Shown piece after piece: positions 22,110 to 62,228 of a DNA stretch of 64,000 bases. A program made the translations under genes and the position numbers. Source of the DNA: Geminicoccaceae bacterium (lineage in GTDB: Bacteria; Pseudomonadota; Alphaproteobacteria; Geminicoccales; Geminicoccaceae); the NCBI GenBank assembly GCA_020638465.1, contig JACKIM010000003.1, positions 34,675-98,674 of the forward strand, given 5' to 3'. The notes under the pieces are model-generated. The model saw only the letters and a list, made by a program, of their open reading frames with translations, did not search any database and was not told where the DNA came from. The first letter of the stretch is position 1. Each line of letters starts with the position of its first letter.

Positions 22110-22169
22110 AGGGGCGCGAAATACCTTCGATTTTCGTCGAATTTTAGGGATCGGGGCCGGTTCGGCCGG

Positions 22170-22892
22170 TCAGGCGGGGGCGTCGCGAAGAAAGGACGTG
22201 CCGTCGGCTGTGGAATTGTCCGGCGGTGCGGGAACCGTCCCGGCCGCCGGGGCGTGGGCTGCTTTCGCCGCGTCGCGTTCCGCCGACAGTGCCGTGCCGG
22301 CGGCCAGCAGCAGGGCGTGAATGTGGCCGGTCAGCCTGCACAGGAGACGGCGGCGGCCGCGGGCACGTTGCAGCGCCGTCTGGTGCTCCGGGTCCTGCCG
22401 CAGTTCGCGGATGCGTTCGGTTGACGGCACGGGATGTTCCCCGGTGCGGGAACGCGATCGCGCAGGTTGATCCATCCGCCGCAGCACGCTGTCCAGCAGG
22501 GCCTCCAGCGGGCGATAGCCGCGCTTCTGGGTTGCCCAGCGCAGCCATTCCAGCTCGTCACGGTTGTCCTCGCCGGCGAAGTGGAACAGGTGCTGGCACA
22601 GTTCGGCAAACCACGGGCGCGCCCGGTCGGCGAGGAAGGCGCGCAGCCCGTCGCGGCCATCGGCGGCGAGGCATTCGAGCGCCATGATCAGTGTCCGGAC
22701 GGTCTCCGGGAGGAGCCGGTCATCGCCGGGCGGGTCCATGTCGCGACAGCCCGCCACCTCCGGTTCCGCCTGCCGCCCGGTGGCCCGCAGCCAGGCGAAC
22801 CGCAACAGTCGTGCCAACCCCCAACGCGAGATCCGCCGCGCCAGCCTCAACGGACGCGTCATGGAATCTGCAGGTGTGGGGTTGGTCGACAT
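22170..22892 (-). CDS. Hypothetical Arg-rich protein, paralogue of 61452..62228
   Basis: Track ORF 22170..23075 trimmed to MSTNPTPADSMTRPLRLARRISRWG at 22892, because the upstream part is low-GC and the paralogue starts at the equivalent residue. I recognised no known domain. Confidence 0.6.
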   Translation of the reverse strand: MSTNPTPADSMTRPLRLARRISRWGLARLLRFAWLRATGRQAEPEVAGCRDMDPPGDDRLLPETVRTLIMALECLAADGRDGLRAFLADRARPWFAELCQHLFHFAGEDNRDELEWLRWATQKRGYRPLEALLDSVLRRMDQPARSRSRTGEHPVPSTERIRELRQDPEHQTALQRARGRRRLLCRLTGHIHALLLAAGTALSAERDAAKAAHAPAAGTVPAPPDNSTADGTSFLRDAPA

Positions 22893-23092
22893 GCCTTCGA
22901 TTCTGCCATGGGTAACATGGAATGTAAAGGAAATTATTCCTTTTATGAATGACGGAAACAATGTCTTCTGGACCCGGAGCGGAGGAAAGGCCGGACCACT
23001 TGCGTGAAATACCTGTATGAACGACCTTCCCGCAGGTGGATTGTTTCCTTGACCAATGCGCTGACATGACTGCAAAAAGCGTTGTCAGTGGA

Positions 23093-23117
23093 GGAACCGT
23101 CCCCAATTTAAACCGTT
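23093..23117 (+). promoter_or_regulatory. EcfG-type (general stress response) promoter GGAAC-N16-CGTT
   Basis: GGAAC (23093-23097), 16-nt spacer cgtccccaatttaaac, CGTT (23114-23117). It lies 35-80 nt upstream of the NepR-like ORF. Confidence 0.65.
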
Positions 23118-23196
23118 AAGCAGGGAACGTACCTCGTCCAGATCTTCAACCATGCGGGACACACGGATCCGATATCCGAGGGACAACCAGACGGCG

Positions 23197-23427
23197 ATGC
23201 ACAAGGCACGGTTCTCACCCCGTCTCAATCCAAACGACCTACCGGACAGCGACTGTCTTTTCGACCGGTGGCTGACGCGGCAGTTCCGCACACTGCATGG
23301 TCCCGGCGAAAGGGACCCCCTCCCCGAACGGCTGCAGAAACTTGTCGATGCCTTTCCATCGCGCGATGACGACACGTGCTGCCACGGCAAAGGACATTAC
23401 GGCCAGCGGGAAAAACCGGACTGCTGA
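23197..23427 (+). CDS. NepR-like anti-sigma factor (small protein)
   Basis: Track ORF 23152..23427. Core LTRQFRTLHGPGERDPLPERLQKLVDAF fits the NepR pattern (L.R..Y......EP[LIV]P..[LF]..LL..L). GC3-rich codon usage. The start could be 23152 or 23197. Confidence 0.55.
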   Translation: MHKARFSPRLNPNDLPDSDCLFDRWLTRQFRTLHGPGERDPLPERLQKLVDAFPSRDDDTCCHGKGHYGQREKPDC

Positions 23428-23600
23428 CAGGTCGGGCCGAAACATTTCTCCCCCGAAGTGGACGTGAACAGGACAGATTACCCATATCGGGTCTGCAACC
23501 TGAATGTCGCACCTTTTGTCACAAAAAGATATTTGCAGATTGGTATTACCAGTTCAGAGTATTGTGCATATGTGAAATAAATGTCGTTTGGGGGAATGTC

Positions 23601-24209
23601 ATGTCGGTTTGTCGCGATGATGTCGTCGCATTGATGCCGGACTTGCGCGCGTTCGCCAGAAGCCTCGTTTCGGGAAACAATGCGCTGGCCGACGATCTCG
23701 TGCAGGATACGCTGGTCAATGCCCTCCAGGCCCAGGACCAGTTCGAGGAGGGAAGCAACCTGCGCGGCTGGCTGTTCACGATTCTCCGCAATCGCTTCTT
23801 CAGCCTGCGCGCCCGGAAATACGTCACCTCCGAAATCGGCACCGACAACCTCGAAGCCCTTGCCTGGGTGGCACCGGAGCAGGAAAGCAGGATCGAAGTC
23901 ATCGCATTCAAACGGGCCTTTGCCGCCCTCGGTTCGAGCCATCGCGAGGTGCTGGTGCTGGCCATCGTCCAGGGCCTGCCCTATGAGGAGGTGGCCCGGA
24001 TATGCCGTTGCGAGGTCGGAACGGTCAAGAGCCGGATCAACCGTGCCCGCAAGCGGCTGCGCGACCTCCTGTTCGATGGCGGGCATGACCGACGGATGTC
24101 CGACTCCGCGGCGCAGGCAGGCCCCCCGGTAGCCGACCGGCGCAAGGTGGTGACCGTCATGCCCGACCGCTTGTCCCCCGTGCCCGAACCGGTCCAGCCG
24201 GCAGACTGA
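23601..24209 (+). CDS. ECF-type RNA polymerase sigma factor (EcfG-like)
   Basis: Track ORF trimmed to MSVCRDDVVALMPDLRAFARSL at 23601 (SD gggggaa). Region 2: DDLVQDTLVNAL and LRGWLFTILRNRFFS. Region 4: PYEEVARICRCEVGTVKSRINRARKRL. About 45-aa tail beyond region 4. Confidence 0.9.
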   Translation: MSVCRDDVVALMPDLRAFARSLVSGNNALADDLVQDTLVNALQAQDQFEEGSNLRGWLFTILRNRFFSLRARKYVTSEIGTDNLEALAWVAPEQESRIEVIAFKRAFAALGSSHREVLVLAIVQGLPYEEVARICRCEVGTVKSRINRARKRLRDLLFDGGHDRRMSDSAAQAGPPVADRRKVVTVMPDRLSPVPEPVQPAD

Positions 24210-61451: not shown

Positions 61452-62228
61452 TCAGGGGATGCCGGAGAGCGATTTGCCGAACACGGGGTGGGGTTTGCAC
61501 ACCGGCAGCGGCCGCCTCGCTGGCACGGGCGGCGGCGGCAGGTCGGGGAAATCGCCGGGCGGCAGCGCGCGGATGAGGCGCAACTCGTCCGGCGCGAAGA
61601 TGGCGAACGCTCCCGCCTGCGGGGTCGTCATCATCGCGTCGAGGATATGCTCGTGGAGACTTTTCAACAGGCGGGACCGTCCCCTTGCGCGGAGCCTTTC
61701 CTCCTCGCCACGGGATTTCCTCGCCCTTGCGGGTTTCGCCGCCCCGGGAGTGTCCTCCGTGAGCGACCATGGCACCGGGCAGACATCCGGCACATCGATC
61801 CCTCTGGCCACCGACTTCAGCAGCGAGGTGATGACATTCCCCATTCCCCTGCGTCCGGCACGATCCAGCCATGCCCTTTCGGCACCATCCGCCGATGCGA
61901 CGGATTGCGCCAGGGAGTTGTCCTGCAACCGGCGGAACCAGTCGCGGGAGTGGAACAGCAGCAGACGGTGGAGGATCGCCCGGAGGCCATGACCACCATG
62001 TGGGGATAGTCCCGCCCGCATCGCCGACAGGACACCTGCCACATGCGGCAGATGTTCCAACCCGTCGACCTCCGCCACATCAAGCCGGACCGCCGGCCCC
62101 GCCAGCACCCCGCGCCGCCCGGTCGCCACCAGCCAGCACACCTTCAGGAAACGAGGCGCGCCCCAGCGAAAGACCCGGCCGGCGAGTTTGCGCGGCAATA
62201 TGGGGGGTGTGGGAGAGGTGTGGGACAT
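61452..62228 (-). CDS. Hypothetical Arg-rich protein, paralogue of 22170..22892
   Basis: 258 aa. Collinear blocks shared with the other copy: MSHTSPTPPILPRKLAGRVFRWG...WLVATGR; HGGHGLRAIL; AERAWLDRAGRRG; ITSLLKSVARGID; RARGRSRLLKSL. Confidence 0.6.
   Translation of the reverse strand: MSHTSPTPPILPRKLAGRVFRWGAPRFLKVCWLVATGRRGVLAGPAVRLDVAEVDGLEHLPHVAGVLSAMRAGLSPHGGHGLRAILHRLLLFHSRDWFRRLQDNSLAQSVASADGAERAWLDRAGRRGMGNVITSLLKSVARGIDVPDVCPVPWSLTEDTPGAAKPARARKSRGEEERLRARGRSRLLKSLHEHILDAMMTTPQAGAFAIFAPDELRLIRALPPGDFPDLPPPPVPARRPLPVCKPHPVFGKSLSGIP

Follow-up and report, generated by a model that had tools for sequence, protein, structure and literature searches.

A nepR-ecfG pair in a Geminicoccaceae genome without PhyR, a probable remnant of the general stress switch

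The locus and its components

The DNA analyzed here is a stretch of 64,000 nucleotides (the window) located on a 395-kb replicon of a Geminicoccaceae bacterium. Its forward strand carries, in this order, an EcfG-type promoter motif, a small ORF for a putative anti-sigma factor of the NepR family, an AT-rich spacer, and a gene for a sigma factor of the EcfG clade.

The sigma gene (23601..24209, forward strand) starts with an ATG at 23601 preceded, at a distance of 5 nt, by the ribosome-binding site GGGGGA, and ends at 24209. It is fully intact (GC3 0.80) and encodes a 202-aa ECF factor with a Pro-rich C-terminal extension of ~40 aa. The peptides ADDLVQDTLVNAL and LRGWLFTILRN, cited in the initial annotation as EcfG-like, are both present, as are the strings cited there for the small ORF. 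The protein is built like a two-domain ECF factor, with only regions 2 and 4, and matches the Pfam models Sigma70_r2 (48.9 bits), Sigma70_r4_2 (45.9 bits), and PhyR_sigma2 (46 bits). TIGR02937 is over its cut-off, and the NCBIfam models of alphaproteobacterial sigma factors match below cut-off only. The best relative in PDB is 5uxx_A (E 4.5e-34), followed by ECF SigH (1e-18); 5uxx_A is the sigma factor in a complex with NepR and was deposited together with the chain 5uxx_B, named 'Anti-sigma factor NepR', and we take the source organism of 5UXX to be Bartonella quintana. The best homologs among 40 relatives come from G021 (66% identity), G016 (63%), G015 (61%), G005 (61%), and G024 (60%), and in each of these genomes the gene lies 2-3 kb from a full-length phyR on the same contig. 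In the maximum-likelihood tree, the window sigma is sister to the ecfG of contig C195 in the same-genus genome G002 (93/91), and both fall inside a 13-member EcfG clade (92/90); the majority of its members show linkage to a phyR locus. Because the closest structure, the synteny in relatives, and the tree agree, we treat the protein as a true EcfG-type factor, as had been proposed, with ECF15 as its probable group. It is the only EcfG-clade sigma in the genome, and the product of the small ORF is the only NepR homolog.

The promoter motif GGAAC-N16-CGTT (23093..23117, forward strand) was identified by sequence reading: GGAAC occupies 23093-23097 and, after a 16-base gap, CGTT occupies 23114-23117. 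It agrees with the published sigma(EcfG) consensus GAAC-N16,17-C/GGTT (PMC4814048), so the exact fit reported earlier holds, and its position is conserved in relatives. The same motif is found 5' of nepR at two related loci (L004 and L058) and directly 5' of ecfG at five (L004, L054, L055, L056, and L058); unlike these five, the window locus has no such motif directly 5' of ecfG. The 23093 motif is informative because of its position rather than its count. The window contains three copies against 0.92 expected, a number reached in 8 of 100 shuffles and hence not beyond chance. Likewise, the 68 sites in the whole genome equal the base-composition expectation (~68), and shifted-spacer controls give 71-92, so there is no enrichment. 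By our estimate, a chance placement in the ~260-bp gap directly 5' of the nepR-like gene and ecfG has a probability of ~0.002. The motif may direct transcription, with a predicted start at ~23124-23127, and the ATG of the small ORF at 23152 follows 34 bases 3' of the motif.

The small ORF (23152..23427, forward strand) has 91 codons and appears to encode a diverged anti-sigma factor of the NepR family, as suggested by a family profile, tblastn, an alignment, and an AF2 model. An in-frame ATG at 23197, chosen by one public gene caller, is an alternative start that would give a 76-aa protein. The ORF contains FDRWLTRQFRTLHGPGERDPLPERLQKLVDAFPSRDDDTCCHGKGHYGQREKPDC, and its core, FDRWLTRQFRTL-HGPGERDPLP-ERLQKLVDAF, reads as a helix, a linker, and a helix. 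The Pfam model of NepR, PF18557, gave no match to the ORF at E <= 1, the same was true of the NCBIfam models, and PF18557 was over its cut-off nowhere in the genome. The NepRs encoded beside phyR in relatives score 25-28 bits with this model, the cut-off being 25.7. We therefore rely, given the failure of PF18557, on a leave-one-out profile built from 10 NepRs of the family, to which neither the window ORF nor its counterpart in the same genus contributed. Among the 78,052 six-frame ORFs of the genome, this profile retrieved the small ORF at E 3.6e-9 (38.8 bits) as the sole significant match, the next one having E 0.15. In addition, tblastn with the NepR of G002 found the ORF at E 2e-8. Thus, the earlier claim of a NepR-like core is supported by the lineage-specific profile and fails with the Pfam model, and the ORF is best described as a probable NepR homolog.

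The core aligns without gaps, as FDRWLTRQFRTLHGPGERDPLPERLQKLVDAF, to the family consensus FDRWLxRQLHxLYDPVLxExxPDDLxxLLxxF. The alignment shows that the Trp, the hydrophobic positions, the P-x-P element (D-P-L-P, corresponding to the (D/E)PxP linker), and the second helix are retained. The family motif LYD is replaced by LHG, that is, the nearly invariant Asp has become Gly and the Tyr has become His. A 12-sequence family profile that includes the window ORF and its counterpart at L060 retrieves the NepR chains 5uxx_B, 4qic_B, 3t0y_B, and 2lfw_B from PDB; the window ORF as a single query does not retrieve these chains. For the 76-aa form, the AF2 model based on the 12-sequence alignment predicts helices at 18-34 and 44-52 with pLDDT ~86, the mean pLDDT being 67 and the flanks having low confidence. 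This predicted layout is that described for the NepR of Caulobacter, two helices with disordered flanks (PMC4551977). The ORF is probably translated and its product may bind the sigma factor.

Some features of the ORF are less regular. Its GC3 is 0.70 versus 0.80-0.90 in the neighboring genes, an antisense ORF scores about equally, and sequence reading revealed no clear Shine-Dalgarno sequence upstream of the ATG at 23152. The acidic tail of the family NepRs is replaced by a Cys/His-rich tail, DDDTCCHGKGHYGQREKPDC. This tail, pointed out in the initial annotation, is real, yet it is unique among the 12 aligned sequences and present in no relative. The Cys and His residues considered with the tail are C35, C72, C73, H74, H78, and C91; neither the HxxxCxxC zinc anti-sigma motif nor a match to the ZAS domain was found in the protein. 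A homolog search of a collection of 15 billion proteins with the ORF returned only the ORF itself, in identical copies whose sources are ENA, IMG, and Logan. These sources called the ORF; no NCBI source is listed for it, whereas the sigma factor has one, in agreement with the expectation that gene callers easily miss such an ORF.

The two genes are separated by an AT-rich spacer of 173 bp with ~47% GC (23428..23600, forward strand), in the place that phyR and/or a HisKA_2 kinase gene occupy in relatives. The spacer contains the dyad TGGTATTACCA at 23541-23551. No EcfG-type motif was found within 23428-23600, a scan of the spacer for sigma-70-like sites and terminators gave none that passed, no Rfam family matched it, and its RNA fold is insignificant (z = -1.6).

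Absence of PhyR and its kinases in the genome and the family

According to the accepted model, sigma(EcfG) is held by NepR, and HWE/HisKA_2 kinases feed PhyR, which in its phosphorylated form removes NepR by titration (PMC5830050, PMC4551977). The PhyR-NepR-EcfG trio is regarded as the conserved core of the general stress response found in Alphaproteobacteria (PMC5830050, PMC4814048). The initial annotation noted that no phyR or kinase gene lies within reach of the pair and assumed a chromosomal PhyR elsewhere. The observation extends to the whole genome, and the assumption did not survive the search. The assembly, rated 100% complete, consists of five contigs of 2.18, 2.00, and 0.39 Mb and 15.7 and 1.5 kb. 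A six-frame search of it with the PhyR model NF006623, which among the controls was over cut-off in Caulobacter only, yielded half-length matches only, to two ECF sigmas or to receiver domains. The six-frame search with PF22029 matched two ECF sigmas only, and a large anti-sigma gene lies downstream of the second. The 18 receiver-domain matches of the NF006623 search all differ from the layout of PhyR, in which an N-terminal domain of ~130 aa precedes a C-terminal receiver. The models HisKA_2 (PF07568) and HWE_HK (PF07536) have no matches in the genome, and both were positive in the Caulobacter control. Thus, PhyR and all HisKA_2/HWE kinases are absent from the whole genome and not just from the locus, as far as HMM searches of a five-contig assembly reach, a very diverged substitute being able to escape them. 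The lack of the kinases that feed PhyR fits a coherent loss of the signaling branch.

A divergently oriented gene for a 240-aa protein was considered as a source of a PhyR substitute and rejected: the protein has no sigma-like or receiver domain, the gene is absent at related nepR-ecfG loci, and it belongs to a family with multiple copies in the window genome.

A survey of 25 genomes of the family, including the present one (G000), points to the gene order before the loss. In six related genera (G021, G016, G015, G005, G024, and G017) we observe the order nepR-phyR-HisKA_2 kinase-ecfG on one strand, with a kinase of 536-651 aa, and this gene order is, as judged by comparison of the loci, probably the ancestral one. 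Two loci are present in G002, a genome of the same genus. One, on contig C86, is nepR-phyR-ecfG, with a sigma factor 52% identical to that of the window. The other, on C195 (L060), contains a diverged nepR-like ORF with no Pfam match, a gene for a 476-aa HisKA_2 kinase, and an ecfG 70% identical to the window gene. The window pair corresponds to the C195 type minus the kinase, which implies that the divergence of the NepR-like ORF preceded the loss of PhyR. When G001 and G002, both of the same genus, were searched at the DNA level, no shared flanks were found; the match is confined to the coding region of the sigma factor, at 72%.

In other members of the family the system is reduced to various degrees. 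PhyR, the EcfG-clade sigma, and HisKA_2 kinases were all not found in 5 of the 25 genomes (G001, G004, G012, G013, and G022). At least two genomes, G000 and G023, keep only nepR-ecfG, with PhyR and HisKA_2 not found, and both are rated 100% complete. The NepR of G023, which looks canonical, also carries a substitution in the LYD motif, LHD. G014 (L004) has nepR-ecfG without PhyR; G010 has ecfG without PhyR, on a contig that ends just past the gene, so that nepR is not visible. Both G014 and G010 retain two or three HisKA_2 kinases. The sigma of G014 groups in the tree with those of the full-operon genomes (82/91), which suggests that phyR was lost there independently of its loss in the window genome. 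PhyR-like proteins of G008, G019, and G020 are below the cut-off. The system is thus patchy across the family, and the pattern is one of repeated loss; within this single family, nepR-ecfG pairs without PhyR recur in two or three lineages at least.

Regulon and possible fate of the pair

In relatives, the 12-kb stretch around the locus contains 2-6 copies of the promoter motif, and the genes behind it include csbD, which typically belongs to the stress regulon, genes for small membrane proteins of the DUF1328 type and for glycine-zipper lipoproteins, and a YihY-like gene. In the window genome, the csbD homolog (C1:980816-981006) is still preceded by GGAAC-N16-CGTA and is split by a frameshift, which could be an assembly error. 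Homologs of the DUF1328 and glycine-zipper genes were not found in the genome, and its YihY-like homolog has no motif upstream. The frameshift in csbD, the missing homologs, and the lack of genome-wide enrichment of the motif point to an eroded regulon, in which a handful of targets may remain. Across the 25 genomes, the ratios of the motif to a reversed-pattern control vary from 0.3 to 13 and are too noisy for a comparison of genomes with and without PhyR.

The left flank of the module (22115-22942) is 97.7% identical to C2:863557-864384, and the module therefore adjoins a recently duplicated segment. This flank encodes the 240-aa protein considered above, which is Arg-rich and has at least eight paralogs in the genome, and no homolog of it was found near nepR-ecfG in relatives.

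The locus is probably a stripped-down remnant of the PhyR-NepR-EcfG general stress switch. In such a remnant, free sigma factor would transcribe the nepR-like gene from the promoter at 23093 and ecfG by read-through, and the NepR-like protein would hold the sigma factor by its helix-linker-helix core. The positive and the negative arm would form a closed, self-limiting loop, with no phospho-PhyR to open it. The sigma factor could then be released only if NepR were turned over, if a further promoter supplied sigma in excess, or if the anti-sigma factor were directly modified. Some observations go against a mere remnant, namely, the intact sigma gene with its good ribosome-binding site and the open small ORF with its hydrophobic pattern and linker.

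These observations would be accommodated by a working switch independent of PhyR that has acquired a new input: redox or metal sensing by the tail, proteolysis of the NepR-like protein, or excess sigma from a separate, repressor-controlled promoter in the dyad-bearing spacer. The retention of both genes intact, not only here but also in G023, likewise without PhyR and complete, and in G014, speaks for this scenario, as do the replacement of the acidic tail by a Cys/His-rich one and the dyad-bearing spacer between the genes. However, the tail occurs in a single sequence and lacks the HxxxCxxC motif; the scan of the spacer gave no promoter that passed; and a regulon is indicated neither by enrichment of the motif nor by the frameshifted csbD homolog. 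On balance, we consider a new input rather unlikely. A still bolder proposal is that NepR and EcfG constitute a minimal two-protein stress switch operating with neither PhyR nor HWE/HisKA_2 kinases, reached independently in at least two Geminicoccaceae lineages, with a tail sensor or a repressor-controlled spacer promoter gained in the present one; this we regard as doubtful.

Another scenario is a dead nepR, where the small ORF is untranslated or its product does not bind, and the sigma factor is controlled by transcription only. It would explain the failure of PF18557, the substitution of both Asp and Tyr in the LYD motif, the lower GC3 with an antisense ORF of about equal score, the lack of a clear Shine-Dalgarno sequence before the ATG at 23152, and the missing NCBI source. 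Yet the frame is open over 91 codons, the Trp, P-x-P, the second helix, and the hydrophobic positions are retained in a core that aligns gap-free, two helices are predicted by AF2, and the canonical-looking NepR of G023 has LHD as well, which makes the scenario unlikely. It is also conceivable that PhyR is encoded in the genome and was missed because of an assembly gap or divergence, and that the pair is an ordinary satellite nepR-ecfG module like those of Rhodobacter sphaeroides and Rhizobium etli. Satellite copies of ecfG away from phyR are indeed common (PMC3892343), the assembly is in five contigs, and three genomes of the family have PhyR-like proteins below the cut-off. But two independent models applied in six frames produced no protein with both halves, no regulator combines an N-terminal domain of ~130 aa with a C-terminal receiver, completeness is rated at 100%, and the kinases that feed PhyR are all gone too; a missed PhyR is thus highly improbable.

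If the locus is a remnant of the switch, its present state may be either of two, which we consider about equally probable: the pair is still active independently of PhyR, or it is silent and decaying. Several lineages that lack PhyR have kept nepR-ecfG intact, which speaks for a residual use of some kind and for function over decay. Ongoing decay is suggested by the erosion of the regulon and by the sister genomes that have lost everything. Should the pair be active, the sigma factor would be released in a way that has not been described for EcfG; if it is silent, the locus would illustrate cleanly how regulation decays on a secondary replicon. The sister genomes, among which all stages between the complete operon and its total loss are represented, offer a natural series for the questions of how a partner switch is dismantled and whether NepR-EcfG works without its antagonist.

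Comparison with known systems

The closest known system is the PhyR-NepR-sigma(EcfG) switch described in Methylobacterium extorquens, Caulobacter (SigT/NepR/PhyR), and Sphingomonas melonis and represented by PDB entries 5uxx, 4qic, 3t0y, and 2lfw. The window sigma belongs to the same clade, and the anti-sigma factor is likewise small, with a helix-linker-helix core and disordered flanks (PMC4551977) according to the predicted model. The promoter is of the same type, GGAAC-N16-CGTT (PMC4814048), and the arrangement of the motif and the two genes would allow autoregulation. The differences concern the signaling branch, as PhyR and the HWE and HisKA_2 kinases are missing from the window genome; the anti-sigma factor, which is below Pfam detection and has a Cys/His-rich rather than acidic tail; the 173-bp AT-rich spacer; and the lack of any sign of a large regulon.

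Within the family, the locus resembles the Geminicoccaceae operons (L054-L059) and the C195 locus of G002 (L060): the sigma factors are 60-70% identical, nepR is on the same side, and the motif is the same. Unlike L054-L059, it has no phyR or kinase gene between the nepR-like gene and ecfG, and unlike L060, it has no kinase gene there.

A more distant parallel is provided by the zinc-binding anti-sigma factors (ZAS) RsrA and ChrR, which have the motif HxxxCxxC. The window anti-sigma factor is similarly small and of the cytoplasmic type, and, by analogy, its Cys and His residues could sense redox state. However, it contains neither this motif nor the ZAS domain, and its predicted fold and core are NepR-like.

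In the literature, which we covered incompletely, we found nothing relevant on natural NepR-EcfG genomes without PhyR or on stress regulation in Geminicoccaceae. Satellite EcfG paralogs, such as EcfG2 of Rhizobium etli, EcfG2-6 of M. extorquens, and EcfG1/2 of Sphingopyxis granuli, resemble the window gene in that they are not located beside phyR. Some satellite copies are free of NepR control, and some are constitutively active sigma factors (PMC3892343, PMC4814048). The genomes with satellite copies still encode PhyR and a primary locus, whereas in the window genome the sigma factor and the NepR homolog are the sole representatives of their families and PhyR is missing. In the cases found, an orphan ecfG module is accompanied by PhyR elsewhere in the genome; here PhyR is gone together with the whole kinase layer.

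Sequences flanking the window's sigma factor gene

The AT-rich spacer ahead of the EcfG-clade sigma factor gene contains a perfect dyad, TGGTA-T-TACCA (23541-23551), 50 nt before the sigma factor start, which forms a small hairpin in the predicted fold of the spacer. A separate regulator of ecfG may use this dyad as its operator.

To the left of the module, an 828-bp segment (22115-22942) contains a minus-strand gene (22170-22892) whose Arg-rich product of 240 aa matches no Pfam domain. The segment is 97.7% identical to C2:863557-864384, on another contig of the same genome, and a further location in the window, 61452-62228, is listed for this gene or segment. At least eight paralogs of the protein are spread over contigs C1, C2, and C3, and the family looks like one in recent spread. 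Against the C2 copy, the tblastn match covers only residues 1-170 of the protein although the DNA match extends further, so an indel may be present in one copy or the other.

Another ECF sigma factor and a split csbD homolog

Besides the sigma factor in the window, only one ECF-type sigma factor is found in the genome (at E <= 1e-15). The gene after it encodes an anti-sigma-like protein of 378 aa (locus L002, C2:906476-909637), and together the two resemble a ChrR/RskA-type system. Outside the window, a one-base frameshift interrupts a minus-strand csbD homolog (C1:980816-981006) after approximately 29 codons, and the Trp conserved in QQWGKL is no longer present; either the gene is a pseudogene or the assembly contains an error here. 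GGAAC-N16-CGTA is still present 74 nt upstream of it.

The general stress system across Geminicoccaceae

Within this single family, possession of the general stress system is strikingly uneven. Of the 25 compared genomes, some carry the whole operon (nepR-phyR-HisKA_2 kinase-ecfG), others have just nepR-ecfG, and five have none of it. The PhyR-like proteins of G008, G019, and G020 score 142-189 bits, well under the family cut-off of 240.

In the PhyR-less metagenome-assembled genome G014, exact GGAAC-N16-CGTT sites are located upstream of nepR and 39 nt before ecfG (locus L004, 3380-3404 and 3937-3961). This locus retains both promoters, whereas the window retains only the first, upstream of the NepR-like ORF. 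In G023, which like the genome of the window lacks both PhyR and the kinase, NepR is encoded downstream of ecfG (locus L062, 5204-5539) and has LHD in place of the family LYD, a Tyr-to-His change that it shares with the NepR-like ORF of the window.
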